Shown piece by piece: positions 6,064 to 21,774 of a DNA stretch of 64,000 bases. Origin of the DNA: Candidatus Latescibacterota bacterium (lineage in GTDB: Bacteria > Latescibacterota > UBA2968 > GCA-2709665). The stretch is from positions 4,672,001 through 4,736,000 of the forward strand of contig OZ220733.1 in the NCBI GenBank assembly GCA_965116875.1, given 5' to 3'. Under the pieces are notes generated by a model, which saw only the letters and a program-made list of their open reading frames with translations, did not search any database and was not told where the DNA came from. Every line of letters begins with the position of its first letter. Position 1 is the stretch's first letter. Both the position numbers and the translations under genes were made by a program.

Positions 6064-6969
6064 ATGCGTATCGTTGCGACTGGATTGACGAAGATCTATC
6101 CGAAGGGGACCGTGCCCGCGCTGGACAACGTGGACCTCGAGATCGGAAAGGGGACCTTCGGGCTGCTCGGACCGAACGGCGCGGGAAAAACCACGCTCAT
6201 CAAGATACTTTCAACTCAGATGGCGCCAACGTCCGGCCATGTAAGCGTGGGTGCCTGGGATCTGCAGCGGAACCGCTCCGAGGTTCGTCGCAGTCTGGGA
6301 TATCTTCCCCAGCACTTCGGTTCGTATCCGCAACTGACGGCGTGGGAGTTTCTGGACTATATGGACCGGCTGGCGGCCGGACGGAGACAGAACGGCAGAA
6401 AAGGGCGTGTGCGCGATGCGCTGGAGAACGTGGGTCTTTACGACGTGCGCGACCGCCGGACCGGCACGTTTTCCGGGGGAATGATGCGGCGCCTCGGGAT
6501 TGCGCAGGCCATTGTGGGCGATCCGGAAATCCTGGTCGTCGATGAGCCCACCGTGGGACTCGATCCGGAAGAACGCATTCGGTTCCGGGGAATCCTTGCC
6601 CGGTTGAGTCGGGACCGGGCCATCCTGATTTCAACCCACATCGTGGGCGATATTTCAAGTACCTGCGATGATCTGGCGGTGCTGAACACAGGGCGGATCG
6701 TCTACAGGGGATCTCCCCAGGCGCTGGTTGATCGCGCCAATGGCAAGACGTGGCGCCTGCAGGCGGACGATGCCGAATTCGAATCGATATCCCGGAAGTT
6801 TCTTGTCGTGACGGTCGCGGTGGACGGCGGCCGGATGGACCTCAGGTTCGTGGGCGATGCCCGGCCGCCTGCAAACTCCGAACCGGTACCACCGAATCTC
6901 GAAGACGCGTACGTGTATTTTATGGGTATGGAGAATCCTGAACGGGACGCAGGAGCGCAAGGATCATGA
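6064..6969 (+). CDS. ABC transporter ATP-binding protein (ABC-2/DrrA type)
   Basis: Walker A GPNGAGKT, signature FSGGM, Walker B VVDE, H-loop STH. Confidence 0.95.
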   Translation: MRIVATGLTKIYPKGTVPALDNVDLEIGKGTFGLLGPNGAGKTTLIKILSTQMAPTSGHVSVGAWDLQRNRSEVRRSLGYLPQHFGSYPQLTAWEFLDYMDRLAAGRRQNGRKGRVRDALENVGLYDVRDRRTGTFSGGMMRRLGIAQAIVGDPEILVVDEPTVGLDPEERIRFRGILARLSRDRAILISTHIVGDISSTCDDLAVLNTGRIVYRGSPQALVDRANGKTWRLQADDAEFESISRKFLVVTVAVDGGRMDLRFVGDARPPANSEPVPPNLEDAYVYFMGMENPERDAGAQGS

Positions 6970-9900
6970 ATACGGTCTTCACCATATTGTCCGTAGCCAG
7001 ATACGAGCGCAAAATGCTGATGCGAACAATCCGGTTTCGCATCCTGGGCGGTATCGGCGTACTCATCCCCGTTGTCCTGGGTATCGGCGTGGCGATCGCG
7101 GAATCCAGAGGCGTCGAATTCGAATCCGTCAGCGGAATCGGCGCCTATATGCCCTTCTTCGTCTACAGCCTCCTCCAGACCGTGGTGATCGCGTTTATTG
7201 TGGGAGATTTCAGGGCGGCGGATGAACGCGCGGGAATCTACGAGGTGGTTGCGGCGCGGCCGCTGTCTACAGCCGAACTGGTCATGGGCAAATATCTGGG
7301 GGTACTGGGTGCGCTGATCACGCTGAGCCTGATTGTGCTGGTGCTCAGCCTGGGGGTGCAGGCGGCCAAAATCAGCATTACGGGCGCCCCGTTTGCGATT
7401 CGACCCTATCTGACGTACCTGCTTCTGCTGAACCTGCCGGGGCTGATTTACATGTCCGCCCTTACGTTCTTCCTCGGGGCGGTGCTGCGCCGGCAGGCCG
7501 CGGTGACCGTGCTGACCATCGCGTATGTACTGATTGTCCTCCTGTTCCTCGGACGCCGATATGGCGGGGTCTACGACTTCGGCGCGTTCTTCGCTCCTGT
7601 GTTCTACTCGGATATGCTCGGCCTCGGCGATATTCGACGCGTCGTGGAAATCCGGTTCTTCTACGCCCTGCTTGCCCTGTTTTTCTTCGGCCTGTCAATC
7701 GACCGGTATCCGCGGCTGCCTCAATCCCGGGCCTGGCGCAGGTTCGGCCGGTGTCTGACTGCCGGCGGTTTCGCTGCCGCGCTGGGTCTCTACCTGTATA
7801 TTGAAAACCGCGACGCCTCAGACCTCGCGTACAGGACAGCGCAGCTGGAAGTACATGAGAGATACGCCGAACAGCCAACCGTGGCTGTAACGCATTACAC
7901 GCTCGACCTGGATCTTGCCGCAGACCGGATGCCCCTGCGGGGCACGGCGGTTCTGCGCGTTTCCAACCCTCATTCCGTTCCGCTCGACACGCTGGTGTTC
8001 AGTCTCAACCCGGGATTGAGACTGCGATCCGTGAGTGTGCGAAGCGGAGAGGACGCTGCCGTGAACTGGAGGCGTGAAACCGCCGTCGTACGGGTCGGCC
8101 GGATGCTCCGGCCTGACAGCACCGCGACGCTGGCGTTCGTATACGACGGTTCGATTGACCTCAGCGGATTCGATCTGAAGCGCCATCCGGATGCGAGGCG
8201 TCTGAAGAAACGGCGCGCGGGGCCGGGAAGAAAGGGCGATCTGACCGCCTGGATTCGCGGGAATTCCGTATTCCTGCCGCCCCGCAGCCGGTGGTATCCT
8301 TCGCCGGGCGTGGATTACGGACACGAGGATGGCAGACCCGTGTCCTTCGCCACCGCGGATTTGGATATCTCTCTTCCGGCGGGTCTGGAGGTTGTTACCC
8401 AGGGTGTGCCGGTCAGCCGGAAGGCGAAGGGCGATCGGGAGGTCCATTCGTGGAAAGCGCGTCGCCCCGTACCCTTTCTTTCGCTCAACGCTGGCGTCTA
8501 CCGTGTCTTCCAGGCCGAAATCCATGATATCCAATGCGCCGTTTACGTTCATCCGGCCCATGCCAGGCAGGTCACCTTCTTCGAAGACGCCAGGGACGAC
8601 GCCCTCGAAACGCTGGGCGAAATCCTGGACAGCGTTGAACAGGAAACCGGCCTGACCTATCCCTACGAACGCCTGTCAGTTGTGGAGGTGCCGTTCCAGG
8701 TACAATGGTATTACGACGGATGGGAGGAAGCCGGAGGTCTCGTGCAGCCGGGCGTGCTGATGCTGGAAGAGGACGTCCTGATGCGGCTCAATCTGCAGCG
8801 GCGCCTGAAATGGATGCAGCGGCGGCAGAGACGCAACGACGACCCCGCGAGGATAAAGCGGGATCTGCTGGTCAGCGCGGTCCTGCGCACGTTTCTTGCC
8901 CGGGAATCGTCTCAAAGTGGCGTCTACCGGAGTCCAGTGGCGCACCTCTGGTCCTTCAACAAGGGCTTCGAAGGCGAACACTACTCCCTGCTCAAGCGCG
9001 GAATGCCCGTCTATATTCAGCAACATCTCGAGACCAGCCTGCAGCAAAGCCTGTATTCGCGGCGTGGCAGGTTCCGGGGTCTGTTCCGGCGCAACAGGGG
9101 CGCGCGAGGCGTCTCCTGGGATACGGTAACGACAAAGATGCGCCAGCGTTCCTTCGCGGAGCTGGACCCGGATGCCGACGAGGAACTCTACCGGGCGGTC
9201 GTCGACGCCAAGGGCGCCTCCATGTTCGGGATGATGCAGGCCGTGGTGGGTGACGAGACGTTCAGAGACGTGGTCAGCGGTTTCGAGGCGTCAAACCGGC
9301 ACGCGGCGGTCGACTTCGAGTCGTTCGAACGCGCGGCCGTCGGAGATTCCTCCAGCCGGGCCGAACGACCCAACCTGCATCGCCTCGTCAGCGACTGGCT
9401 GCACGGCACACAGGTTCCGGGATATACGCTCACCAGGGCAAAGGCGTACAAAGTGGACGATGGGTGGGGAATGATCGTGTATCAGGTCGTCGTGCGGATC
9501 CGAAACGGAGAACCGGGGCGCGGATTCGTCCAGATTCGAGCGATGGGGAGGGAGGACGAGGCGGTGAAGGGCGTTGAGATCGAGGGTGGGCAGGAAGTCG
9601 AGGTGGGGTTGATTCTCTGGGAACGGCCGTCGAGAGTCAGCGTCGAGCCGTTTTTTGCAAGAAACCGCCGCGTTCTGATGGCGCCGCTGCGCATACCCGA
9701 GCAGCCGATGGACGGTTCCGCCACGACCTACGTGAGAGAGGTCGCCCCGGATGAGACGGGATTGACCGAGATCATCGTGGACAACGACGACGAAGGCTTC
9801 GAAATGCCGGTCCGGAGGGTGCGGCGTTATTTCCGACCGCAGTTGAAAGGGGACAACTGGCAGGAACGACAGATGCCGTTTTCATTCGGCCGGTATGAGA

Positions 9901-10364
9901 CCAACTACAGGTGGAAGAAACCCGGCGACGGCGCGCAACCGGCGGTCTGGACGGCCCGTTTGCCGCACAGCGGGGATTACGACGTCTACTACTATTTCGT
10001 TCATCCCCGGTTCGCCAGGCGTCTGCGAATGGCCACGGAATTCAGTCTGGCGGTCTGCCACGGCGGCGAGGTGGATACACTGGCGGTCGAAGCGGACAGG
10101 CTCAAGGGCGGCTGGAACGTGATGGGTCGATACCGATTCGAGGGTGGGGAGTTGGCCCGCGTCGAACTGTCCGACCGGGCAAACGGGCGCCTCTATGCCG
10201 ATGCGGTGCGCTGGAGGTACGTGGATCCCGATCACCCGGAAGAGGTGTATGAAGAAGATCTTCCGACGTGGAATTTCGGTCGGGGCCGTCGGGGCGGCGA
10301 CCGGGGCGGGCGAGGGGGCGGCAGCCGGAGCGGCGGAGGGCAAACGCGGGGAAGAGGTTGGTAA
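6966..10364 (+). CDS. ABC-2 permease fused to a degenerate M1-aminopeptidase-like domain and a C-terminal beta-sandwich (golvesin/CBM-like) domain
   Basis: N-terminal TM block with ELVMGKYLG; HYTLDLDL, FSLNPGL, YPYERLSVVEVP, KGASMF..VGDETF M1-like motifs; no HExxH; C-terminal IIVDNDD...ADAVRW and an RGG tail. Confidence 0.7.
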   Translation: MNTVFTILSVARYERKMLMRTIRFRILGGIGVLIPVVLGIGVAIAESRGVEFESVSGIGAYMPFFVYSLLQTVVIAFIVGDFRAADERAGIYEVVAARPLSTAELVMGKYLGVLGALITLSLIVLVLSLGVQAAKISITGAPFAIRPYLTYLLLLNLPGLIYMSALTFFLGAVLRRQAAVTVLTIAYVLIVLLFLGRRYGGVYDFGAFFAPVFYSDMLGLGDIRRVVEIRFFYALLALFFFGLSIDRYPRLPQSRAWRRFGRCLTAGGFAAALGLYLYIENRDASDLAYRTAQLEVHERYAEQPTVAVTHYTLDLDLAADRMPLRGTAVLRVSNPHSVPLDTLVFSLNPGLRLRSVSVRSGEDAAVNWRRETAVVRVGRMLRPDSTATLAFVYDGSIDLSGFDLKRHPDARRLKKRRAGPGRKGDLTAWIRGNSVFLPPRSRWYPSPGVDYGHEDGRPVSFATADLDISLPAGLEVVTQGVPVSRKAKGDREVHSWKARRPVPFLSLNAGVYRVFQAEIHDIQCAVYVHPAHARQVTFFEDARDDALETLGEILDSVEQETGLTYPYERLSVVEVPFQVQWYYDGWEEAGGLVQPGVLMLEEDVLMRLNLQRRLKWMQRRQRRNDDPARIKRDLLVSAVLRTFLARESSQSGVYRSPVAHLWSFNKGFEGEHYSLLKRGMPVYIQQHLETSLQQSLYSRRGRFRGLFRRNRGARGVSWDTVTTKMRQRSFAELDPDADEELYRAVVDAKGASMFGMMQAVVGDETFRDVVSGFEASNRHAAVDFESFERAAVGDSSSRAERPNLHRLVSDWLHGTQVPGYTLTRAKAYKVDDGWGMIVYQVVVRIRNGEPGRGFVQIRAMGREDEAVKGVEIEGGQEVEVGLILWERPSRVSVEPFFARNRRVLMAPLRIPEQPMDGSATTYVREVAPDETGLTEIIVDNDDEGFEMPVRRVRRYFRPQLKGDNWQERQMPFSFGRYETNYRWKKPGDGAQPAVWTARLPHSGDYDVYYYFVHPRFARRLRMATEFSLAVCHGGEVDTLAVEADRLKGGWNVMGRYRFEGGELARVELSDRANGRLYADAVRWRYVDPDHPEEVYEEDLPTWNFGRGRRGGDRGGRGGGSRSGGGQTRGRGW

Positions 10365-10423
10365 TCCGCTGTAGACCAGCGAATGATAACCATTATATGA
10401 GGTGCAACTTGAACAGAAAAACC

Positions 10424-11491
10424 ATGAACGGTTATTGGATGGTATTCATGGCTGTTGCCCTTCTGGCCGGATGTGGCGGGCAGACCGAACAGCGTTCCGT
10501 GGATCTGACCGTCCCCGTAACGGTTCAGGCGGTGCGTCTGGACACCATGGAGGCGACGGTGGCGGCCACGGGTACGCTCCGGCCCGTCAGAGAAGCCCGT
10601 ATTCAGACCGAGGTCGAAGGAATTATCCAATATGTGGCGCGGGGCGTTGGAGGACGGCCGACGGAGGGAATGCGGGTGACCCGGAACCAGGTAATCGCCC
10701 GGCTAGTGAACAAGGAGCTTGTCGTAAACGCCCGCCTGGAGTCCCGTGATCTTGCTCGCGCCTCAGCGGAGCGTACGTTGCGCGAGCAGGAGGTACTCGT
10801 CAACCGGAAACTGGGCACGGAGAGAGACCTGGAAGAAGCGCGCCAGGCCCTTGCGGAGGCCGAATCCAACTATGAAGACGCTCTCGTTCAGATCGCCAAG
10901 ACGACGATCCGGACGCCAATCGCCGGCTTTCTGACAGGATTGGCCGATATTACCGAGGGCACGATGGTGGAGGCCCGCACGACCATTGCAACGGTGATGG
11001 ATTACCAACAGGTACTCGTCGATCTCAAAGTTCCGAACGCATATATCGCAACCGTTTCAACGGGCCAGGTCTTGCGCGTGGAGAACTACGCATTGCCCAA
11101 CCGACGGTTTCTGGGGACCGTCAGGGTGGTGGACCCGGCCATCGATCCGGCGACGCGTACGTTCCGGGTGGTGGGGGCGGTGAAAAACCCGAACCGGATG
11201 TTACGGCCGGGGATGTTCGTGAAGGCAGAGATTGTCACAGAGTCTCACGAAGACGCGGTGGTAATCCCGCGACGATTCGTCCTGACGCGCCAGAATCGCA
11301 AGGTGGTGTTCGTCGAGGAGGAGGGAAGGGCGCAGATGCGCGACGTGGAGCTGGGACTGGAGGGATCGGAACAGGTCGAGATTCTCGAAGGGCTTGAACC
11401 TGGCGAGCGCCTCATTACCAGCAACTACGAGACGCTGCGGTCCCGTACGCGCGTGCGTGTAACCGGGGAGGACGCTGCGGGGCGGCGGTGA
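10424..11491 (+). CDS. RND efflux periplasmic adaptor (membrane fusion lipoprotein)
   Basis: Lipobox LLAGC, IRTPIAG, IDPATRTF, LRPGMF, GLEPGERLI. Confidence 0.92.
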   Translation: MNGYWMVFMAVALLAGCGGQTEQRSVDLTVPVTVQAVRLDTMEATVAATGTLRPVREARIQTEVEGIIQYVARGVGGRPTEGMRVTRNQVIARLVNKELVVNARLESRDLARASAERTLREQEVLVNRKLGTERDLEEARQALAEAESNYEDALVQIAKTTIRTPIAGFLTGLADITEGTMVEARTTIATVMDYQQVLVDLKVPNAYIATVSTGQVLRVENYALPNRRFLGTVRVVDPAIDPATRTFRVVGAVKNPNRMLRPGMFVKAEIVTESHEDAVVIPRRFVLTRQNRKVVFVEEEGRAQMRDVELGLEGSEQVEILEGLEPGERLITSNYETLRSRTRVRVTGEDAAGRR

Positions 11492-11774: not shown

Positions 11775-14700
11775 ATGTCATTGCCCGAATTTTCCACGAA
11801 ATATCCCGTGACGGTCGCGATGGCGACGTTGGCGGTAGCGCTCCTTGGCTGGATCTCGCTGGACCGGCTCGACGTGGATCTCTTGCCCGACCTGCGTTCT
11901 CCCGTGATCACTGTCGACCTGCGATTTCCCGGAAAGACGCCCAGGGAGATGGAGGAACGGTACGCGCAGCGCCTGGAAGGGGACATCGGTACGGTGCGGC
12001 ACGTAAAACGCGTCCATTCGGTGTCCCGCTCCGGGCAGGCCGTGGTGATCGCGGAGTTCGAGTGGGATGCGGACATGGATTTCGCGGTTCTCGACGTGCA
12101 GAAGAAAGTGGCGCGGTACGCATCGGACCCGGATATCACGAGTCTGGACGTGACGCAGGAAGACCCGCAGGCATTGCCGGTGATGCGTCTGGCTGTTTCG
12201 GGGGCGGACTGGCAGGATCCCGATGAATTGCTGGGCAGCGTGGAGACGATCATCCGGCCCAAGCTCGAAGGGTTGCCGGGGGTGGCTTCGGCTGAAATCG
12301 AAGGGGGAGCCGAAAAGGAGATCCGCGTCATACTGGATTCCTATCTCCTGCAAGCATTCGGCGTGAATTCCGCGACGGTGGTCTCGCGGATTCGTGAAGC
12401 GAATTCGGATGTCTCCGGAGGAACGTTGAAGGACGGGCAGCAATCCTACCTGGTGAAGGGCCTGGGAAGGCTGACCGACCTGGCGGACGTGAACAGCCTG
12501 GTTGTGGGCGAGCGCAGCGGCGGATCTTCGAACGGCGGCGAAAACGCCTCGACCGAACGCGTGCCGGTCACGGTCAGCGACGTGGGTACCGTGGCCCTCC
12601 GGTATAAGGATAGGGAAACCATCGTCCGTCTGGACGGGATGGAGTGCGTAGGGCTTTCGGTCTACAAGGAAGCCGGCGCGAACACCTCTTCAGTGGTTAA
12701 CGGGGTACTGCAGGAACTGGAGAGCCTGGAGGCCGATCTGGCCGGCATCCGGTTTACGGTGGTGGAAAACCAGGCACGCTTTGTCGAACGTGCGGTAAAC
12801 GAAGTCGAAGAGGCGGCAGTTATCGGCGCATTGCTGGCCGTGGGCGTGCTGCTTGCCGCGCTCCGGCAATGGACCGCCACGCTGGTGATCGGTCTTGCCA
12901 TTCCGATTTCCGTTCTGGCGACATTTACGCTGATGTATTTCCAGGGGTTGACGTTGAATGTGATGACCCTGGGCGGTCTCGCGCTCGGCGCCGGAATGCT
13001 GGTGGATAACGCCATCGTCGTGATTGAGAACATCTACCGGCGCCTCGAAAGCGGTGAATCAGCCGCAGAAGCCTCCGTCAGAGGCGCCGGCGAGGTCGGC
13101 GTGGCGATACTGGCGTCCACACTGACGACCGTGTCCGTGTTTCTACCCATCGTTTATCTTCACGGTCTGGCCGGCGAACTCTTCAAGGAACAGGCATGGA
13201 CGGTGGCGTTCTCACTGGTTTCGTCTCTCGCGGTGGCGATGTCGGTGGTCCCCATGATGACCGCACGGCTTTTCAGGCGGTATCCACGCAGGTCCACCGG
13301 GGTCGCCGGGGCGCGGACGTTCCGGCGTTTTCTGGACGCGTCGCTCAACCGTAAAGGCCGCACGACAGCGGTACTGGCAGCCTGCATTGCGGCCGCCTTC
13401 TATATGGCCGCGTCCATCCATACGTCGTTCATTCCCACGGAAGACGAGGGGGTACTCCACCTGGACCTCGCGATGCCGGAAGGCACGAGACTCGAGTCAA
13501 CAGACAGGGTGGCGAGACGCGTTGCGGCCATTTCGCAGGCGGTTGCCGGAGAGGAAGCCCGGCACATCTACCTGCGGGTGGGAACGGATCCGAACCGGTT
13601 CACGGCCGTTGGAGAGCCCACAGGCCCGAACCGGGCCGAACTGACGGTCGTCCTGGGCCCTCGGGCGGACCGCCGTGGCGTTACCGAGCTCACCGCCGCA
13701 CTGGATGCTGCCCTCCTGGACGTGCCGAATATCAAGGTGAACTATAGACTCCATAAATCTGCGTTGGAAGGACTTATACGTGGAGGCGCTGCACCGGTCC
13801 AGGTGGAAGTGAGTGGCGAGAACCTGATATTGCTTCGGGAACTGACGGCAGAACTGAAACGGCGCATGGATGCGTTGTCGACGGTATATAATGTTCGAAC
13901 CAGCTTCCAGGACGGGCAGCCCGAAGTGGACGTCGTGCTACGACCGGACGTCACCGCGGCGTTCGGCCTGACTTCACAAAACCTCGTGCGTGAACTCGAG
14001 CGCAGACTCGGCGGCGAGGAAGCCGGTGAACTGTCCAAAGACCAGCGCGAGCGAACCATCCGGGTGGGTTTCGCGGACGTGGATCTCCGTGAACTGGAAC
14101 ACGCCAGAATTGACGGCCCCGACGGGGCAATGCTCACACTGGGAGATCTCGCGGACCTTCGCGTGGTTCAGGGTCCAAGGGAAATCCTGCGTGACGGACA
14201 GCGCAGGGTGGGGAGGGTATCCGCGTTTCTGGCCGAAGGCATGGTCTTGAGCCAGGCGGCAGCGCAGATCAGGCAGGCGGTTGGGCAGATGGCCGTTCCA
14301 CATGGGTATCGTATAACGATCACCGGAGAGGAACGTGAACGGGCCGAATCATTCGGAGGCCTGCAATTCGCCCTCCTGTTGTCCGTGGTACTCGTCTACA
14401 TGGTCATGGCCTCGCTCTTCGAGTCTTTGCTGCATCCATTTACCGTAATGCTGACAGTGCCGTTGGCCGGCATCGGGGTGGTGTTCGCATTCTGGGGCCT
14501 TGGAGAGGCGTTTGGCGTGATGGCATTCATCGGAGCGATCATGCTGGGAGGCATCGCCGTGAACGACGCCATCATTCTGGTGGATCACATCAACCAGCTG
14601 CGGCGTAAAACCTCCGACGTCAGAACCGCCGTACTCCAGGGCGCGCAGGATCGGCTCCGACCGATCCTGATGACCAGCGCCACGACCATTCTGGCCCTGT

Positions 14701-14858
14701 TGCCCATGGCGGTGGGCGTGGGCGAAGGCGCACGTCTCCGGGCGCCGATGGCGGTGGCGGTCATCGGAGGACTGGTCACATCCACATTGATGACCCTGGT
14801 GGTGATTCCGGTTGTCTACGAACTGATCGAACGGCTCAGAAACAGGAGTGCGGCGTGA
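11775..14858 (+). CDS. RND (AcrB/AcrD/AcrF family) permease
   Basis: 1027 aa; GMLVDNAIVVIEN (TM4), RLRPILMT, AVIGGL. Confidence 0.95.
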   Translation: MSLPEFSTKYPVTVAMATLAVALLGWISLDRLDVDLLPDLRSPVITVDLRFPGKTPREMEERYAQRLEGDIGTVRHVKRVHSVSRSGQAVVIAEFEWDADMDFAVLDVQKKVARYASDPDITSLDVTQEDPQALPVMRLAVSGADWQDPDELLGSVETIIRPKLEGLPGVASAEIEGGAEKEIRVILDSYLLQAFGVNSATVVSRIREANSDVSGGTLKDGQQSYLVKGLGRLTDLADVNSLVVGERSGGSSNGGENASTERVPVTVSDVGTVALRYKDRETIVRLDGMECVGLSVYKEAGANTSSVVNGVLQELESLEADLAGIRFTVVENQARFVERAVNEVEEAAVIGALLAVGVLLAALRQWTATLVIGLAIPISVLATFTLMYFQGLTLNVMTLGGLALGAGMLVDNAIVVIENIYRRLESGESAAEASVRGAGEVGVAILASTLTTVSVFLPIVYLHGLAGELFKEQAWTVAFSLVSSLAVAMSVVPMMTARLFRRYPRRSTGVAGARTFRRFLDASLNRKGRTTAVLAACIAAAFYMAASIHTSFIPTEDEGVLHLDLAMPEGTRLESTDRVARRVAAISQAVAGEEARHIYLRVGTDPNRFTAVGEPTGPNRAELTVVLGPRADRRGVTELTAALDAALLDVPNIKVNYRLHKSALEGLIRGGAAPVQVEVSGENLILLRELTAELKRRMDALSTVYNVRTSFQDGQPEVDVVLRPDVTAAFGLTSQNLVRELERRLGGEEAGELSKDQRERTIRVGFADVDLRELEHARIDGPDGAMLTLGDLADLRVVQGPREILRDGQRRVGRVSAFLAEGMVLSQAAAQIRQAVGQMAVPHGYRITITGEERERAESFGGLQFALLLSVVLVYMVMASLFESLLHPFTVMLTVPLAGIGVVFAFWGLGEAFGVMAFIGAIMLGGIAVNDAIILVDHINQLRRKTSDVRTAVLQGAQDRLRPILMTSATTILALLPMAVGVGEGARLRAPMAVAVIGGLVTSTLMTLVVIPVVYELIERLRNRSAA

Positions 14859-17800
14859 TTCTCCCCGATCTTGCGGTCCGGCGGCCGGTGACGACGTCCA
14901 TGTTCTTCGCCGCATTCGCCATATTGGGCGTCGTGTCGTGGACGAGGCTTCCGATTCAACTCTTTCCCGAGCTGATCTTTCCCGAGGTGTTTGTCACGCT
15001 GACGCTGCAGGGCGCCTCTCCGGAACAGGTAGAGAGAGATCTGCTGATTCCGGTAGAAGGGGAGATCGGCAAGCTCGACGGCGTTCAGGAGATGGAATCG
15101 TTCGCGACGGCCAACCGGGGGGGAATCCGGATATCCTACGCCCCCGACGTGGATATGAAATTCGCCCTGCTTCAGCTGCAGAGCAACCTGAACAGATTGC
15201 AGCCGACATTGCCCGAGCGCACGCAGACCGATGTGCGCAGGTTCGACTCGACGGATTTCAGCAGCAGCATTATGGAGCTTCACGTGCTTGCCGACTGGGA
15301 CCTGAACTCGTTGCGTGAGTTCACGGAGGAAAAGATCCGACCCGAACTGGAGTCTGTCGACGGTGTTGTGAACGTATCTATAATGGGCGGGCGCCGCAGC
15401 GCCGTGGAAATCGTCCTTGATCCGTTTCTGCTGGAGGCGCATGGCCTTTCGGCGGGGCAGGTGCGGACGAGACTGAACAGCCATAACCGGAGGCGCGAGT
15501 ACCTGGGCCGGGTATTCGACGGGAACCGGGCCTATTCAGTGAGTATTCAGGGACAGTTCACGGACCTGCGTCAGATTCGCGACCTCGTTGTGAACGACGA
15601 CGGCACGCTCAGGCTGGGCGACGTTTCGCGGATCGCATACGGCCTTCAGGAACAGGCCGACCGGCACAGGGTCAATGGCAAACCGTCGGTCGGCGTACGA
15701 ATCCAGAAGGACGACGAAGCGAATCTGATCGAAGTGGCCGCGGCCGTGGAAGCCACCATCGGGCGGCTGAATCGGGACCTGGAAAGTGAAGGCGTGGAAC
15801 TGGGGGTGAGTTCCTCCCAGGCCGATTTGATGAACGGGGCGCTTTCCACCCTGAAACAGGCGGCCGTGGTCGGCGCCGTACTCGGACTGATCGTACTCTT
15901 TCTGTTTCTTCGTAACCTTCGCTTTGTATCGGTTCTCCTGCTGGCCATCCCGGTTTCACTCCTGATGACCTTCAATCTGATGTACCTGGGCGGACTGTCT
16001 GTCAACGTCCTGTCGCTTTGCGGTCTCGCCCTCGCGATGGGAATGCTTGCAGACAACGGCATCGTGGTGATGGAGAATATCTTCAAACACCACGAGCGAG
16101 GAAAATCGCCGGCTCGCGCTGCGCGTGACGGGGCTTCCGAAGTGGGGCGCGCCGTGGTCGCGGCAACGGCAACCACGGTAACCGCATTCCTGCCGGTTCT
16201 GTTTATCGAAAGCGATACGCGGGACCTGCTGCGCGAACTCGCGTTGTCCATGGCGTTTCCGCTCCTGGCGTCTCTGCTGGTTGCGCTTACGCTGGTTCCC
16301 GCCCTCGCCGTCCGCGCGTTGAGCCGGGAGGTCCGGCAGCCGCCGGACGTCCGCGGTCTGCTGGAACGGTACACCCTCCTGCTGAAGGCCGCCTTGCGCC
16401 ACCGCGCGTCGGTGGTCCTGGCCGTGGGTGGCGCTCTCCTGCTGACGCTCGTACTGGCTTTCTTCTACCTGCTTCAACAGCAGGTACGGAGAGAGGAGAC
16501 GCGCTTTACGGTTTACGTGAATCTGCCGGAAGGAGCCACGCTGGATGCCACGGATGAGGTGGTGAAACAGGTGGAAGCGTCCGTTCGGGAGGTGCCCGGA
16601 CTGGATCGGTTTACGACGTCGGTCCGGGAGGCCGAGGCCGACGTAACCGTCATGCTGCTCAACCGCTCCGACCGGCCCGCCGGTATCTCGATGGATGAAA
16701 TCAAGGAACGGCTGGACGAGAAACTGCAGAATGTACAGGGTGGCGTCGTCGGTTACGAACCCAGGGCGCGGGCGGGGAGGGGCGGCCGCGGGCAGGGGAT
16801 CGGGCAACGACGGAGACGCGGTTCCGGAGGCTTCGATCTGACCGGGGCCGCGCCGAACGAGCAGGTTGTGGTACGCGGATATGACTTTACGATACTGACG
16901 ATGCTTGCGAACGACGTGTCATACCGGCTCGAGGAACTCGAGGAAGTGGATGCCAACAGCGTACGCGCGGACGCCGAGCGGAGTTCGCCCGAGGTCCAGG
17001 TGATACCCGAGGCGGCCGCCCTGTTCGACCGGCGGCTCGGCGCGCAGGAGGTTCTCGCCGCAATGGGCGACACCCGATGGGACGGATTCCGCACAACCGT
17101 TCCGTTTCTGTTGCCCGACGCGACCGAGATACCCATCGAGGTACGTACGATTGAAGAGGAGGACCGCGACCGGTACGGGCTGGCCGAATTCCGTCGTTCG
17201 CGTATTCTGAATCAGGACGGCCACTATGTGCCTCTTGACGAAGTCGCGCGGGTCCGGACTGACGAGGGCAGAAGCAGCCTGCTTCGGACCGATCAGGCCC
17301 GCCGGCTCGTGGTTACCTACAGGTTTCCTTCGGAAATCCTGGATTCACAGCCCCGGTTGGAACTTGCGAGACGGGTCGTGCGAGCGACGCTGCAGGATAT
17401 GGTGCTGCCTGAGGGTTATTCTATCGAAATCATCGAGGCGCACGAGGAGATGATCTACTATTGGATGATGGCAATCGCCGCGGTACTGATCTATATGATT
17501 CTGGCGTCGCTGTTTGAATCGCTCTCCTCTCCGATCATCATCCTGTGTACGCTCCCGCCCGCCGCCATCGGCTCCTGCTGGGCGCTGATGATGTCAGGCA
17601 CGGGCCTGAGCCAGCAGGAGGGCCCCATGGCGCTCCTGGGATTCATCGTCCTGCTGGGTATTGCCGTAAATAACGGGATCATCCTGGTCGACGCGGTCGG
17701 TGTACTCAGGTCCCGGTTCGGCTACCGCCGTGAACGCGCTGTACTGACCGCGGCGAGGTCCCGCCTGCGACCCATCCTCATGACGACGGCCACGACGCTG

Positions 17801-19567
17801 CTCGGGGTTCTTCCGCTGGCGCTGGAATTCGGCGGCGATTTTGAGATCTGGCCGCCGTTTGCGATCACGGTGCTGGGAGGATTGTCGCTTTCCATGATGT
17901 CCACGCTGATCCTGATTCCGGTTGTGTATATGGGACTGGATCAGATCGGCGACTGGCTTGCCGGAATCGGGTTGGTTGGAGTCACGCTCTCACTGCTGGC
18001 CACTGCCGCGGCCGGCTATGGCGTTTACGTCCGATATGAGAGCATTTTCTGGTTGAGCCTGTCGATATTACCAATCTGGGGCGCATTTCTGGCCGCTGCG
18101 TGGATCATTCAACGGGTGTATTACGCCCGGGTCGCCGCCCGCCGCGTGTCGAGCGCCGTGCACTCCATACAACTGAGGAACCTTACCAAGATTTACGGCG
18201 CTCCCGGGCGTTTCACGAGGGAGTGGGCGCGCACGGAGCGCCGGCGAGGGCGGCTGATGAAAACGGGCCTGGAGCCGAAGGACCGCAAGGCGGTTCGCGA
18301 TGCCCTCATCTGGAAACTGCCAATGCTCGCGCTGTTGTCGTTATTCGCGACCTATTTCGAAGACGAGATCTGGATCTATCTGCACGCGTTGGCTTTGGCC
18401 TTTATGGCCTCCCACGTGGGTCGATGTTTCGGAGAACTCCGCCATTGGCATCTGCCGGCGCTGCCGGCCCGTGTCGTCCGACTGCTGCACAAAGTCGCAC
18501 TACCGCTGGCATTGGTCGCCTATGTACACTGGCGGCTGGACCTGCTTTCGATCACGCTTGCCACTTGCGGGACGTGGGCGGGGTATCGTCTGGCGCGGCG
18601 GCTCGCCGACAGGGTGCGGACGGGCGAAATCAGCCCCGATGACCTGACCGGACGTCTTGTGCGGCCGCGCCGCTGGATTTATCGATTGGCGTCGGCCCTT
18701 CCTCTCATTGGCGTTCCACGGCCGGAATTTCGAGCGCTGGCAAACGTCAACCTGGAAATCGGCAGGGGCATGTTCGGTCTGCTGGGTCCGAACGGCGCCG
18801 GAAAGACCACGTTGATGCGTATTCTCTGCCGGGTACTCGAACCCAGCTACGGGTCCATTCTGATCGACGGCCGAAACATCCTGAATAAAGGCTCGATTCA
18901 CGGACTGATCGGGTACCTGCCACAGCACTTCGGCAACTACGGCCACCTTTCCGCATACGAGTTTCTGGAGTACAGAGCGCTGCTCGAGGGCTTCAAGGAC
19001 AGGAAGATCCGCGAGACCCGGGTGATCGAATCTCTGGAGCATGTCAATCTGATCGAACGAAAAGACGATCCCATCGGTTCATTTTCAGGCGGGATGAAGC
19101 AGCGCCTTGGGATCGCGCAGACGCTCCTGCATGCCCCGCTGATCGTCGTCGTGGACGAGCCCACGGCGGGTCTGGATCCACTGGAGCGTATCCGGTTTCG
19201 CAACCTGCTCGCCAGATTGAGTCAGGATCGAATTGTCATTTTTTCCACGCATATCGTGGAAGATATCTCGGGAAGCTGCAATCGGCTGGCGGTACTGGAC
19301 CGGGGGAGATTGCTGTATACGGGAACGCCGGGGGAGATGAGAATTCTGGCGGCGGGCCGGGTGTGGGACGCGGTGGTCTCGGACGGTCGCTTTTCCGAAA
19401 TGGAAGGTGAATTGAAGCTCATCTCGCACCAGCGAACCCCCGACGGCGTCCGGATGCGTTTCCTGTCGGAGCGCGCGCCGGTCGGCATCGGCGCGCAGAG
19501 CGTGGATCCAACCCTGGAGGACGCATATCTATACCTGCTTGGAGGAGGGGAGGGACAGCCGTGCTGA
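14855..19567 (+). CDS. RND permease fused to a C-terminal ABC ATPase
   Basis: Full RND (GMLADNGIVVMEN, RLRPILMT) continuing in frame through extra TM segments into an NBD with GPNGAGKT, GYLPQ, FSGGM, VVVDE, STH. Confidence 0.9.
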   Translation: MILPDLAVRRPVTTSMFFAAFAILGVVSWTRLPIQLFPELIFPEVFVTLTLQGASPEQVERDLLIPVEGEIGKLDGVQEMESFATANRGGIRISYAPDVDMKFALLQLQSNLNRLQPTLPERTQTDVRRFDSTDFSSSIMELHVLADWDLNSLREFTEEKIRPELESVDGVVNVSIMGGRRSAVEIVLDPFLLEAHGLSAGQVRTRLNSHNRRREYLGRVFDGNRAYSVSIQGQFTDLRQIRDLVVNDDGTLRLGDVSRIAYGLQEQADRHRVNGKPSVGVRIQKDDEANLIEVAAAVEATIGRLNRDLESEGVELGVSSSQADLMNGALSTLKQAAVVGAVLGLIVLFLFLRNLRFVSVLLLAIPVSLLMTFNLMYLGGLSVNVLSLCGLALAMGMLADNGIVVMENIFKHHERGKSPARAARDGASEVGRAVVAATATTVTAFLPVLFIESDTRDLLRELALSMAFPLLASLLVALTLVPALAVRALSREVRQPPDVRGLLERYTLLLKAALRHRASVVLAVGGALLLTLVLAFFYLLQQQVRREETRFTVYVNLPEGATLDATDEVVKQVEASVREVPGLDRFTTSVREAEADVTVMLLNRSDRPAGISMDEIKERLDEKLQNVQGGVVGYEPRARAGRGGRGQGIGQRRRRGSGGFDLTGAAPNEQVVVRGYDFTILTMLANDVSYRLEELEEVDANSVRADAERSSPEVQVIPEAAALFDRRLGAQEVLAAMGDTRWDGFRTTVPFLLPDATEIPIEVRTIEEEDRDRYGLAEFRRSRILNQDGHYVPLDEVARVRTDEGRSSLLRTDQARRLVVTYRFPSEILDSQPRLELARRVVRATLQDMVLPEGYSIEIIEAHEEMIYYWMMAIAAVLIYMILASLFESLSSPIIILCTLPPAAIGSCWALMMSGTGLSQQEGPMALLGFIVLLGIAVNNGIILVDAVGVLRSRFGYRRERAVLTAARSRLRPILMTTATTLLGVLPLALEFGGDFEIWPPFAITVLGGLSLSMMSTLILIPVVYMGLDQIGDWLAGIGLVGVTLSLLATAAAGYGVYVRYESIFWLSLSILPIWGAFLAAAWIIQRVYYARVAARRVSSAVHSIQLRNLTKIYGAPGRFTREWARTERRRGRLMKTGLEPKDRKAVRDALIWKLPMLALLSLFATYFEDEIWIYLHALALAFMASHVGRCFGELRHWHLPALPARVVRLLHKVALPLALVAYVHWRLDLLSITLATCGTWAGYRLARRLADRVRTGEISPDDLTGRLVRPRRWIYRLASALPLIGVPRPEFRALANVNLEIGRGMFGLLGPNGAGKTTLMRILCRVLEPSYGSILIDGRNILNKGSIHGLIGYLPQHFGNYGHLSAYEFLEYRALLEGFKDRKIRETRVIESLEHVNLIERKDDPIGSFSGGMKQRLGIAQTLLHAPLIVVVDEPTAGLDPLERIRFRNLLARLSQDRIVIFSTHIVEDISGSCNRLAVLDRGRLLYTGTPGEMRILAAGRVWDAVVSDGRFSEMEGELKLISHQRTPDGVRMRFLSERAPVGIGAQSVDPTLEDAYLYLLGGGEGQPC

Positions 19568-20283
19568 ACTGGCGGGAACTGCTGTTGACCACGTGGCGGC
19601 TTTTTCGGCTGAGCTGCAGGATTATCTTTCACAGGAAACTGATATTCATGGCCCTGGGCATCCTTGTCTATTTTGCCGCCATGTACGCATTTGCGGTCTG
19701 GCGTCCCGACGAAGGATTCGGCGTATCGAAAGCGCTCCATGTTCTGGTTGAAATTCCCGGCATCGCACTGGCCATCTACCTGACGATGGACCTCGTGACG
19801 GGCGAACGAGACAGGAACACACTGGAGACGTTGTTCAGCACAACCTCGTCGCACTACCGGATCTGGACGATTCGAATGGTGGGGGTCTATCTGGTGCTGG
19901 CGGGAACGCTGATGGGAATGACGGTTGTCGCCTACTTTTTCTTCGCGGAACTGCCGATCCTCCGGGGCGGGTTGAACGCCTTCCTGCCGGCGTGCTTTGC
20001 CGCGGGGCTCACGTTTTACTTTTCCGTTCTCTGTCGAAGCGGAAACGCATCCGCCATGCTCGCTACGGGCGTGATGGGCCTGATGCTGGTTGTCTCACAG
20101 TCAATGCCCGACTCACCTTTCGTGCTCTTTCTGGACAGTTTCGATCCACCGGTGGGAATGGAAGACACGTTGTGGGGCGACCGGGTGTTGCTGAATCGCC
20201 TGGCGGTGGCGCTGCTGTCGGGTCTGCTGCTCTATGTCGGCCTTCGCAAGATGGAATCCAGGGAGCGGCTGGTATCTTCGTAG
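19561..20283 (+). CDS. ABC-2 type permease
   Basis: About six hydrophobic helices; GERDRNTLETLFST coupling-helix-like motif; overlaps the upstream stop. Confidence 0.75.
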   Translation: MLNWRELLLTTWRLFRLSCRIIFHRKLIFMALGILVYFAAMYAFAVWRPDEGFGVSKALHVLVEIPGIALAIYLTMDLVTGERDRNTLETLFSTTSSHYRIWTIRMVGVYLVLAGTLMGMTVVAYFFFAELPILRGGLNAFLPACFAAGLTFYFSVLCRSGNASAMLATGVMGLMLVVSQSMPDSPFVLFLDSFDPPVGMEDTLWGDRVLLNRLAVALLSGLLLYVGLRKMESRERLVSS

Positions 20284-20298: not shown

Positions 20299-21441
20299 CT
20301 ATTCCTTCCGTACATCCAGCCGGACCTTGCGGGGCTCCACGTCTACGACCGTCAGGTCCGTCCCGTGCCTGATCGACTCGATGCCGAATTCAAAGGTCCT
20401 GCGACCGAACCTCACGTAGTTGGCATCGATTGCAAGTTGGAAGTCGCCCACGGACGCCAGCAGTATGGCGCGGCGCGGGCCCTTCACGGTCACGTTGACG
20501 ACGGGGGGCGTGACACCCTGCAGCGCATAGCCGCCCGGCAGATTTTCCACGCCGACAGCCACTTCGTACGTCGTTTCCTGTACCGCGCTGCCGGGTACCA
20601 GGAATATCCACGCGCCGAATGCCAGCGCGAATGAGAGCAACCCTTCCGCAATGCGCCGCACCAGCCGGCTCCGTCCGTTTCTCCTTCCGCCGGCGACCGC
20701 ATGCTGCGCGTGTTCCTGCAATCTGGCAAGCAGTTCGTCAGGATCGTTGACAACTTCCAGTCGCCCCTGAAGCGCCACTGAGATGGTGCCGCGCTCCTCG
20801 GAAACAACCAGGCACAGGGCATCGCTGCGTTCGGCCAGGCCCAGCGCCGCGGCGTGACGAGTGCCTCCAGGTCCCAGTTCGGCGCGGTTTTCCGATAGCG
20901 GGAGATGTACCGCGAAACGCTCCAGTCTGTCTTGTCTCATCACCAGGGCCCCGTCGTGGCCCGCCGACGACGTACCGAACAGGCTGTCGATCAGTTCTTC
21001 GCTGATGGTCGCCTGCAGTACGATCCCGCCCTGCAGGAGCCTGTCCAGCGGTTCCTGCCCGGGCAGGACCACGAGGGCGCCCCGCCGCTTCGCCGCCAGC
21101 TGATGCATCGCACGAACCAGCACCGCCAGACTGCCTCCGCGGGGGCGCGATATCCGTCTGCCCAGGCCCAATGCGGCAATCTGTTCGAAGAGCCGCCTCA
21201 GATCGTCCTGAAAGACAACGACGAGCAGCACAACCAGCACTGCAAAGAAGCCCTGGAATATCCACGCCGTGAGTTGCAGCTCGAACTGCTGCGCCAGAAG
21301 ATAGAATACGCCCAGAAACGCGAGCCCGATCAGCGCCATTCGCGCGTGCATCCTCCGGGTCCAGGCCAACAGGCCCCAGAACAGGACACCCACGACGGCT
21401 ATGTCCACAAAATCGGTAAATGCGATCTCCAGCAGGGCCAT
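20299..21441 (-). CDS. cdaA: Diadenylate cyclase (CdaA/DisA_N) with C-terminal YbbR/CdaR-like domain
   Basis: N-terminal TMs, VVFQDDLRR, HDGA, GTRHAAA, VSEERG; C-terminal TM plus PPVVNVTVKGPR. Confidence 0.85.
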   Translation of the reverse strand: MALLEIAFTDFVDIAVVGVLFWGLLAWTRRMHARMALIGLAFLGVFYLLAQQFELQLTAWIFQGFFAVLVVLLVVVFQDDLRRLFEQIAALGLGRRISRPRGGSLAVLVRAMHQLAAKRRGALVVLPGQEPLDRLLQGGIVLQATISEELIDSLFGTSSAGHDGALVMRQDRLERFAVHLPLSENRAELGPGGTRHAAALGLAERSDALCLVVSEERGTISVALQGRLEVVNDPDELLARLQEHAQHAVAGGRRNGRSRLVRRIAEGLLSFALAFGAWIFLVPGSAVQETTYEVAVGVENLPGGYALQGVTPPVVNVTVKGPRRAILLASVGDFQLAIDANYVRFGRRTFEFGIESIRHGTDLTVVDVEPRKVRLDVRKE

Positions 21442-21774
21442 ATTCGTAGATTTCCGGCTAGTAATTCTGGTCTTCCGAGTACAAATGCGCGCGCGGGAGG
21501 CGAGGAAATACCCACCGGCCCGAAATATGGGCAATCTTTCACCTTTCGTCAAGAGCCGGGCAGGGAATCATCACGGATCCTGCAGCTGCCTGCCCGGGTC
21601 AACGGCGGCCGGAATATTCCACGATCCGCCGATCTCGCCGGGCAGCCTGAATCGTCCGCGGTATCCGTCTTTCGCTTGGCCGGTACCTGGAAAATACCTA
21701 TATTTACGACTTCTTGCCCAGCAGGGAATGTACATTGATTCATCTCACGCTGTTTTGGAATGGAGGAATGCCAA

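Follow-up and report, generated by a model that had tools for sequence, protein, structure and literature searches.

The ATPase domains of ATP-binding cassette (ABC) proteins are among the best-studied protein folds, and to our knowledge they are regarded as contiguous modules, short soluble loops aside. Here we describe a gene in which such a domain is split by a long insertion with hydrophobic helices. The gene (P0001; 14855..19567, + strand) lies in a stretch of 64,000 nucleotides from a Candidatus Latescibacterota bacterium (GenBank contig OZ220733.1, positions 4,672,001 to 4,736,000), which as a whole is called the window below. It joins a resistance-nodulation-division (RND) pump, two extra membrane helices and the split ABC ATPase domain in one chain of 1570 amino acids (aa), with a GTG start codon and a frame that is open throughout. 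The site of the split, between strand 1 and strand 2 of the domain, tolerates extra sequence in other proteins as well. According to the accessible text of PMC5065228, the regulatory insertion of nucleotide-binding domain 1 (NBD1) of CFTR and loops of about 20-40 residues in ABCG2, ABCG5 and ABCG8 lie in this same place, between the A-loop strand 1 and strand 2 of the ATPase core, and the authors name the CFTR segment as the only loop earlier described at that location. These loops are soluble and mobile, whereas the insertion of the fusion adds ~170 residues, with four ordered hydrophobic helices and a conserved charged helix.

Other parts of the system also have described relatives. The RND side resembles MdtABC of E. 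coli, with its MdtB2C heterotrimer, in that an adaptor gene is followed by two tandem RND genes and MdtB is the best solved match. For MdtBC, a division of labour between the two RND subunits has been proposed (PMC4338810, accessible text). MdtBC lacks an ATPase domain, whereas in the fusion system one RND bears six more helices and an ABC motor; the likeness to a heteromeric pump of the MdtBC kind is seen from the tandem RND gene order only. The ABC side resembles NosFY (NosDFY), CcmAB, PmtCD and the ABCG proteins. NosF is among the best structural matches of the ATPase domain, and NosY is the best match of a small membrane protein encoded next to the fusion. In the predicted docking of this protein on the split domain, an interface helix at the N-terminus and a coupling loop engage the groove of the Q-loop, as in type V transporters. 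In NosFY-type systems the ATPase is free or simply fused, and contiguous, whereas in the fusion it is split by membrane helices and joined to an RND pump. An ABC motor that works with a periplasmic adaptor and an outer-membrane channel is also found in MacAB-TolC (PMC8277102, accessible text), but MacB has its own membrane and periplasmic domains, a contiguous ATPase domain and no RND part. We found no description of an RND-ABC fusion or of a split-ATPase arrangement in the full-text literature searched, which covers few subscription journals, and such a fusion goes unmentioned in the accessible text of the review PMC8277102. What appears to be new here is a putative membrane insertion without described precedent in an ABC ATPase domain, which itself belongs to an undescribed family of RND-ABC fusions.

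The initial annotation had placed the break in the nucleotide-binding domain between nucleotides ~18164-18199 and ~18734, with ~180 residues in between, and the coordinates and the sequence are as it gave them. In the frame of the fusion, nucleotides 18164-18199 (+) translate to S-I-Q-L-R-N-L-T-K-I-Y-G (SIQLRNLTKIYG, residues 1104-1115), which holds strand 1 and the A-loop with its aromatic residue, Y1114. The strand 2 element, ALANVNLEIGRGMFGLLGPNGAGKT, begins at A1294 (nucleotide 18734), and 178 residues lie between G1115 and A1294. The break point is exactly past the Tyr-Gly of the A-loop, within the hairpin that leads from strand 1 to strand 2. From strand 2 onward, as delimited by the profile of unsplit relatives, the rest of the domain is in one piece (residues 1292-1570; 18728..19564, +). 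The two elements had also been reported as adjacent in a free paralogue, and so they are: the unsplit ABC ATPase P0122 (5905..6969, +; Pfam ABC_tran; true start probably M54) has GLTKIYPKGTVPALDNVDLEI uninterrupted, with both elements side by side in MRIVATGLTKIYPKGTVPALDNVDLEIGKGTFGLLGPNGAGKT. P0122 and the fused domain share 46% identity across 279 residues, in a BLASTP alignment that opens at the residue directly after LTKIY, and the C-terminal extension of the fused domain is common to the paralogue. From the A-loop Tyr to Walker A there are ~24 residues in the paralogue (counted in the translation) and 196 in P0001. The A-loop aromatic is present in the fusion, but the usual contiguous hairpin ~25 residues before Walker A is not found.

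We conclude that the upstream SIQLRNLTKIYG segment is strand 1 of the ATPase domain and that the split is confirmed. An 11-column matrix of strand 1 and the A-loop was derived from unsplit relatives only, using a 33-row alignment (32 loci and the free paralogue of the window) in which 27 rows have residues in the 11 columns. It was scanned over the whole length of each collected fused protein of more than 1450 aa (n=118). In 117 of the 118, the highest score along the entire chain falls on a site 150-300 residues ahead of Walker A; in the single exception, P0059, the expected site ranked second (14.6 vs 13.4 bits). Median scores are 19.75 bits at the best site and 3.5 bits at the next; P0001 itself scores 23.9 bits at residue 1105, with a runner-up site at 3.3. 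Since a matrix made from unsplit relatives picks this site in 117 of 118 proteins, the match to strand 1 is well beyond chance. When a profile hidden Markov model of the unsplit relatives is aligned to fused proteins, the match starts only at profile position 19-20, which falls at residue ~1292 (12 rows inspected); in P0001 the alignment opens at profile position 20, residue 1292 (E 1.1e-104). Similarly, positions 16-220 of the NCBIfam model GldA match residues 1293-1496 of the fusion, and positions 1-228 match in the free paralogue.

Strand 1 is conserved together with the catalytic motifs. The initial annotation would have withdrawn its claim if the motif LRNLTKIY were variable in homologues. 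In alignment A1 (112 rows, comprising the window protein, 106 full-length homologues and 5 fragments), none of the 112 rows lacks K1112, and position 1114 is aromatic in every one (Y in 110 rows, F in 2). The count is 107 rows for L1110 and 103 for T1111, which V replaces in 7. A simple motif pattern located strand 1 correctly in 100 of the 107 full-length proteins, and the seven misses occur because V replaces T. In A1, 185-278 residues separate the A-loop Tyr from Walker A, with a median of 196. Walker A K1317, Q-loop Q1357, the signature S1411-G-G, Walker B D1434-E1435 and H-loop H1466 are invariant in the 112 rows.

The structural model places strand 1 back in the domain. We modelled the C-terminal module (residues 1031-1570, 540 residues) with AlphaFold2, with A1 as input, and obtained a mean predicted local distance difference test (pLDDT) value of 92.4 and a predicted template modelling score (pTM) of 0.82. 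Residues 1104-1114 are modelled as an 11-residue beta strand (E74-84 of the module) with pLDDT 91-96. The next strand along the chain is 1292-1303 (12 residues), followed by 1305-1310 right before Walker A, and all remaining strands of the module belong to the ATPase domain. Because a strand assigned by DSSP requires a hydrogen-bonded partner and the other strands are all from the ATPase domain, strand 1 must sit on the ATPase sheet in the model, in the canonical order of strand 1, strand 2, strand 3 and P-loop. This also answers the question of whether the segment packs with the nucleotide-binding domain, on which the initial annotation had made its claim depend. As independent support, Y1114 and G1115 share a confident interface with residues of the ATPase groove in an ESMFold2 complex model (see below). 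The best structural matches of the fused ATPase module in Foldseek are TM_1403 and NosF.

Strand 1 is preceded and followed by hydrophobic helices. Ahead of it, two extra helices (residues 1032-1061 and 1064-1097; 17948..18145, +; module helices H2-31 and H34-67) come after the last transmembrane helix of the RND part (TM12). Their maximal Kyte-Doolittle values over 19 residues are 1.97 and 1.99, and the second of them, TM14, ends about 7 to 14 residues before strand 1. Right after the A-loop comes a conserved charged helix (residues 1119-1136; 18209..18262, +; H89-106), with E1123 in 99, W1124 in 110 and R1129 in 107 of the 112 rows; judged from a Kyte-Doolittle value of ~-1.9, it is not membrane-embedded. 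Four hydrophobic helices follow as two hairpins (1144-1164, 1171-1196, 1202-1228 and 1231-1255; 18284..18619, +; H114-134, H141-166, H172-198 and H201-225), mostly with pLDDT >90. A short helix (1269-1280; 18659..18694, +; H239-250) then leads back toward the ATPase domain and includes Y1276 (module Y246), which is at least 90% conserved and nearly invariant. The four helices have cores of ~15 residues, for which the Kyte-Doolittle value averages 1.7-2.0 over the family. On either side of the four helices, the flanking segment has a mean of 9.4 Lys+Arg. The tip of the first hairpin is acidic (0.1 Lys+Arg, 1.3 Asp+Glu), and that of the second is just three to six residues long. Conserved Trp and Tyr residues (W1153, Y1167, W1173) are found at helix ends. 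Taken on hydropathy and charge distribution alone, this pattern fits two helical hairpins that would enter the membrane from the cytoplasmic side.

The initial annotation saw here a membrane-anchoring module inserted at the A-loop. The insertion site is exact and the helices are hydrophobic, but anchoring is improbable as the purpose, because a linker of ~7-14 residues already joins the domain to 14 membrane helices, namely the two at 1032-1097 and the 12 that belong to the RND part. The insertion is also peculiar to these fusions in the searches we made. A Pfam scan of P0001 gave no family match across residues 1028-1295, and neither Pfam nor NCBIfam has a family over the insertion helices. 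A phmmer search with residues 1100-1295 against 1.84 billion representatives gave 42 matches at E <=0.001; those inspected are all fusions of the same type (with the match near residue 1100 of ~1570) or fragments, and no relative of the insertion outside the fusion family was seen among them. A search of the ESM Atlas with residues 1031-1292 returned no usable neighbour. A profile comparison of the module with the small permease (probability 0.1) gave no hint of an ABC-2 membrane domain, in degenerate form, among the six extra helices. Foldseek matches of the module to ABCA3, ABCA4 and ABCA7 (~500-600 columns) were set aside, with TM-scores of 0.38-0.42 and a root-mean-square deviation of ~20 Å, no better than matches to the ATPase domain alone.

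The split domain has a likely membrane partner. A small membrane protein of 240 aa is encoded at 19561..20283 (+), its start overlapping the stop of the fusion. Among 43 loci, it lies directly 3' of the fusion in 40, and the remaining three run into contig edges. Its Pfam match to ABC2_membrane_3 is below the cut-off (E 0.0038), and none of six orthologues submitted (6/6) has a match to that family. The AlphaFold2 model (pLDDT 87.1, pTM 0.84) has NosY, CcmB, PmtD and ABCG membrane domains as its top Foldseek matches, with TM-scores of 0.48-0.64 and weak E-values that start at 1.8e-3, none being <=0.001. We predicted the complex of the C-terminal module (alignment A1) with the small protein (alignment A3) in three runs, alongside three controls. 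The runs scored 0.70, 0.71 and 0.70, the best control scored 0.00, at least 97% of the contacts were common to the three runs, and the pLDDT of the partner was at least 76. Of 157 solved complexes, 116 came up to the mark used, as did 2 of 215 pairs that were mismatched; these counts apply only roughly here because our own alignments were used. On the module, the confident interface consists of residues 1114-1115, 1322, 1325-1329, positions within 1349-1383 (the groove of the Q-loop and helical subdomain), 1422 and 1426. On the partner, it consists of the N-terminal helix 6-24, the loop 85-96 with residue 101, and residues 234-238. The predicted docking is the usual ABC-2 mode, and on these models the split domain would have the small protein as its likely membrane partner, of the ABC-2 (type V) kind.

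The RND part is complete. It spans residues 5-1027 (14867..17935, +) and is AcrB/MdtB-like by its Pfam and NCBIfam matches. Pfam assigns ACR_tran to residues 5-1027 (E 3.8e-185) and ABC_tran to residues 1296-1438 (E 1.8e-26); positions 3-1019 of the 1021 in the ACR_tran model are covered, that is, the full-length 12-helix, two-loop RND architecture. The score for NCBIfam RND_permease_2 is 525 bits, under the 1250-bit cut-off of that model, and the best named NCBIfam models are MdtC and MdtB. MdtB (9lyq_B) is the closest solved relative. Within the periplasmic part there is a Gly/Arg-rich low-complexity stretch, RARAGRGGRGQGIGQRRRRGSGG (nucleotides 16790-16850, residues ~646-665), whose Gly run is also in the family consensus.

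The positions of the proton relay are altered in both RND proteins of the system. In AcrB, the relay residues are, in what we take to be its numbering, D407 and D408 (the Asp-Asp of TM4) and K940 (the Lys of TM10). TM4 of the fused RND (nucleotides 16040-16078) has D-N where MdtB has D-D, and its TM10 (nucleotides 17657-17692) reads V-N-N, with Asn in place of the Lys of MdtB and MdtF; the Arg and Thr of RLRPILMT are retained. Among 39 related loci, TM4 of the fused RND is D-N in 34, D-S in 3 and D-T in 1, with the pattern unmatched in 1, and TM10 is V-N-N in 37 and unmatched in 2. The unfused RND of the window likewise has D-N in TM4 (nucleotides 12993-13031), as do most related loci, and V-N-D in TM10 (nucleotides 14550-14585), the latter shared by 11 loci, with V-N-N in most others and V-S-N in three. 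As far as the sequences tell, the Asp-Asp/Lys triad of the AcrB type is missing from both RNDs, the TM10 Lys being found in neither. Other RND families rely on other networks. The altered positions are for this reason suggestive, and no proof of lost proton coupling.

From the split but complete ATPase domain, its conservation, its modelled packing, the fusion to an RND pump, the NosY-like partner and the operon, we infer how the system may be built and how it may work. We favor, and hold to be probable, an intact ABC domain, predicted to be catalytically competent, whose chain is discontinuous, whose strand 1 is folded back, and which sits on an RND pump and engages a NosY-like partner. Strand 1, with the adenine-stacking Y1114, would come out of the two extra membrane helices. 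After the A-loop the chain would exit the domain, pass through the charged helix and the two hydrophobic hairpins (1144-1255) in or on the cytoplasmic membrane, and be back at residue 1292. As strand 1 folds back onto the ATPase sheet, the ATP site would be complete; as it is flanked by TM14 and the insertion, either end of strand 1 would clamp the ATPase to the membrane. The adenine-sensing element would then be wired directly to membrane helices and could couple ATP binding and hydrolysis to the membrane part. Together, the split domain and the 240-aa NosY-like protein would make up a type V (ABC-2) module. This module would be permanently joined to a two-gene RND pump that resembles MdtBC, with its adaptor and, for the Bacteroidota, a channel in the outer membrane. 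The most likely task of the ABC-2 module would be to extract or flip a hydrophobic substrate on the cytoplasmic side and deliver it to the RND pump, which would expel it. The ABC-2 module might instead gate the RND pump. By analogy with MdtB2C, two fusion subunits and one plain RND subunit could bring two motors together.

Several observations weigh against this proposal. RND pumps are trimers and ABC motors are dimers, which raises a question of stoichiometry. The initial annotation counted several hydrophobic helices in the insertion, and the 15-residue cores agree with this; over 19-residue windows, though, the family means are only 1.2-1.7 (0.37-1.46 for P0001 itself), so full membrane crossing is uncertain. 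The insertion helices are less hydrophobic than the two helices before strand 1 (~2.0), and from their sequence they may be re-entrant or peripheral. The conserved Y1276, 35 residues ahead of Walker A, could be an alternative adenine contact. The pairing of strand 1 with strand 2 is a deduction from the DSSP string and not from measured contacts, and a monomer model cannot separate packing within the chain from packing onto a neighbouring subunit. The score of the predicted complex may show likeness to a type of complex and not binding of this copy, because NosFY and ABCG complexes are solved. The confident interface includes no residue of the insertion, which is no evidence of absence.

A different role for the motor would follow if the fused, membrane-wired ABC domain drives or gates the RND pump itself, the effect of ATP binding being relayed by way of the six extra helices to the transmembrane domain of the RND part. 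We regard this as unlikely. It draws on the loss of the Asp-Asp/Lys relay of the AcrB type and on the membrane helices that flank the A-loop strand; if true, RND pumps would have their first member that ATP energises or gates, one in which primary and secondary active transport are physically combined. A somewhat smaller chance is given to a strand swap, in which strand 1 of one fusion subunit completes the ATPase domain of its neighbour and the split serves as an oligomerisation device under the RND trimer. The linkers about the insertion are long (~35 residues after G1115 and ~44 before strand 2), strand 1 and the helix that follows are among the most conserved parts, and an extra tie would be useful where ABC motors dimerise while RND pumps trimerise. 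AlphaFold2, however, gives one compact monomer (pTM 0.82), and the end of TM14 ~7 to 14 residues before strand 1 limits its reach.

It is also rather improbable, to about the same degree as a pump driven or gated by ATP, that the insertion is a peripheral or soluble helical domain that modulates ATPase activity, as a much enlarged counterpart of the CFTR regulatory insertion. The short cores of ~15 residues and the 19-residue hydropathy, which is under the usual 1.6 for most helices, would suit such a domain, as would a site shared with the CFTR insertion and the 20-40-residue ABCG loops (PMC5065228, accessible text). But the loops known from that text are described as mobile or invisible in crystals (PMC5065228), and the insertion is modelled as ordered helices with pLDDT >90. 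Moreover, all four helices reach a family mean of 1.7-2.0 over 15 residues, W1153, Y1167 and W1173 are conserved at helix ends, and the Lys+Arg flanks and the acidic first tip fit the positive-inside rule. Degenerate ATPase domains exist in other ABC proteins, and the strand-1-like motif might be a relic, with an ATPase that works without it or is inactive and a C-terminal part that is a mere structural appendage. We think this very improbable: the motif is as conserved as the catalytic motifs, those motifs are invariant, and the model has no replacement strand before residue 1292. An assembly or frameshift artefact that fuses separate genes has next to no probability and is refuted by the 40 of 45 loci from different genomes with open reading frames (ORFs) of at least 1451 aa and by the presence of both Pfam domains in all of the at least 120 homologue clusters listed.

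Fusions of this type are spread over several phyla. The homologue search was limited to proteins of 863-2748 aa and gave these clusters of at least 120 in number; all listed carry PF00873 and PF00005, most are ~1570 aa long, and their identity across the C-terminal 541 residues is 39-87%. Where sources are named, they refer to Gemmatimonadota, Latescibacterota, Acidobacteriota and KSB1. Names given by automatic annotation already cover the two halves of the protein, as in 'multidrug efflux pump subunit AcrB/ABC-type multidrug transport system ATPase subunit'. Strand 1 and the insertion were found in at least 45 loci (45 of the 80 kept, from species-representative genomes). Among these split-fusion loci, 40 have the long ORFs mentioned above, 4 are cut at contig ends and 1 (L039) is interrupted; in this last locus, from a Prolixibacteraceae genome, the frame with strand 1 (L039:9953-10336) has only 127 codons, and the fusion is apparently interrupted. 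Carriers include the cultured Bacteroidota Marivirga tractuosa, M. sericea, Bacteroides sp. 224, Draconibacterium mangrovi, Parabacteroides massiliensis and Maribellus maritimus, and likewise a Calditrichaceae genome.

In a maximum-likelihood tree of 80 ATPase domains, from which L052 was left out as the Walker A pattern was not located in it, the 45 fused domains form one side of a branch with support of 99/98. This is compatible with a single origin of the fused domains. Another locus, L067, has a divergent RND-ABC fusion of 1438 aa by Pfam (L067:6539-10855, +), whose strand 1 (VIVTKNLTRIY) is only ~87 residues ahead of Walker A, with a short, non-hydrophobic insert. It has a long branch in the tree, at an unresolved fork beside the fused clade, and may represent either an intermediate on the way to the split or a reduction of it. 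A word-index search for a free-standing split ATPase among proteins of 261-832 aa gave 6 matches, none clearly free-standing. Five are fragments at contig edges, four of them with RND sequence and one labelled partial at its source. In the sixth, P0126 (616 aa; encoded on a contig of 3.95 Mb), a piece of the RND periplasmic part is joined straight to the region before strand 1, which looks like an internal deletion and not like a free-standing split ATPase. P0160 (526 aa) begins with M and, going by its sequence, may be free-standing.

The fusion belongs to a multi-gene operon that recurs in related loci. In the window, the order is the free ABC ATPase, a protein with ABC-2, M1-like and Golvesin_C parts, the adaptor, the unfused RND, the RND-ABC fusion and the 240-aa membrane protein, and adjoining genes overlap by a few bases. 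The second of these genes (6966..10364, +) encodes 1132 aa, with an N-terminal ABC-2 membrane part, an M1-peptidase-like region, a Golvesin_C domain (by Pfam) and a Gly/Arg-rich tail. The HEXXH...E and GxMEN motifs are absent from its M1-like region, and no NCBIfam family matches the protein. The periplasmic adaptor, or membrane fusion protein (10268..11491, +), matches Pfam HlyD_D23 and NCBIfam RND_mfp (E 5.7e-56). The unfused RND permease (11775..14858, +) has 1027 aa, a Pfam ACR_tran match with E 2.3e-222, and a stop that overlaps the start of the fusion. Most of the 39 related loci likewise have an ORF of ~975-1073 aa upstream of the fusion. In Marivirga tractuosa (L006:3663-6834), the unfused RND is present as two ORFs (485 and 558 aa), for which a frameshift or sequencing error is possible.

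The order of ORF sizes in the window is repeated in ten related loci. With the ORFs of related loci that we submitted to Pfam, Golvesin_C was found in 9 of 9 (upstream of the fusion), the adaptor in 4 of 4 and the upstream RND in 3 of 3. An outer-membrane efflux protein was found in 5 of 5, four of them from Bacteroidota and one from a Calditrichaceae locus. In the window, as in two Latescibacterota loci, the stretch that separates the Golvesin_C gene from the adaptor gene has no ORF of the size of an outer-membrane channel. Immediately downstream of the operon, the window has a gene for a diadenylate cyclase of the CdaA type (CdaA_N, DAC and YbbR-like; 417 aa; 20299-21552, - strand).

With membrane helices that interrupt the domain at the adenine-sensing A-loop, the fusion is a natural test case for how nucleotide binding is transmitted to membrane parts. 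It joins two transporter superfamilies with different energy sources, in an operon with adaptor and outer-membrane components, and so makes testable a long-standing idea, that of an exporter in the cytoplasmic membrane which feeds an RND pump that clears the periplasm. Because there are members in cultured Bacteroidota that are not pathogens (among them Marivirga, Draconibacterium and Maribellus), biochemistry and cryo-EM are feasible.

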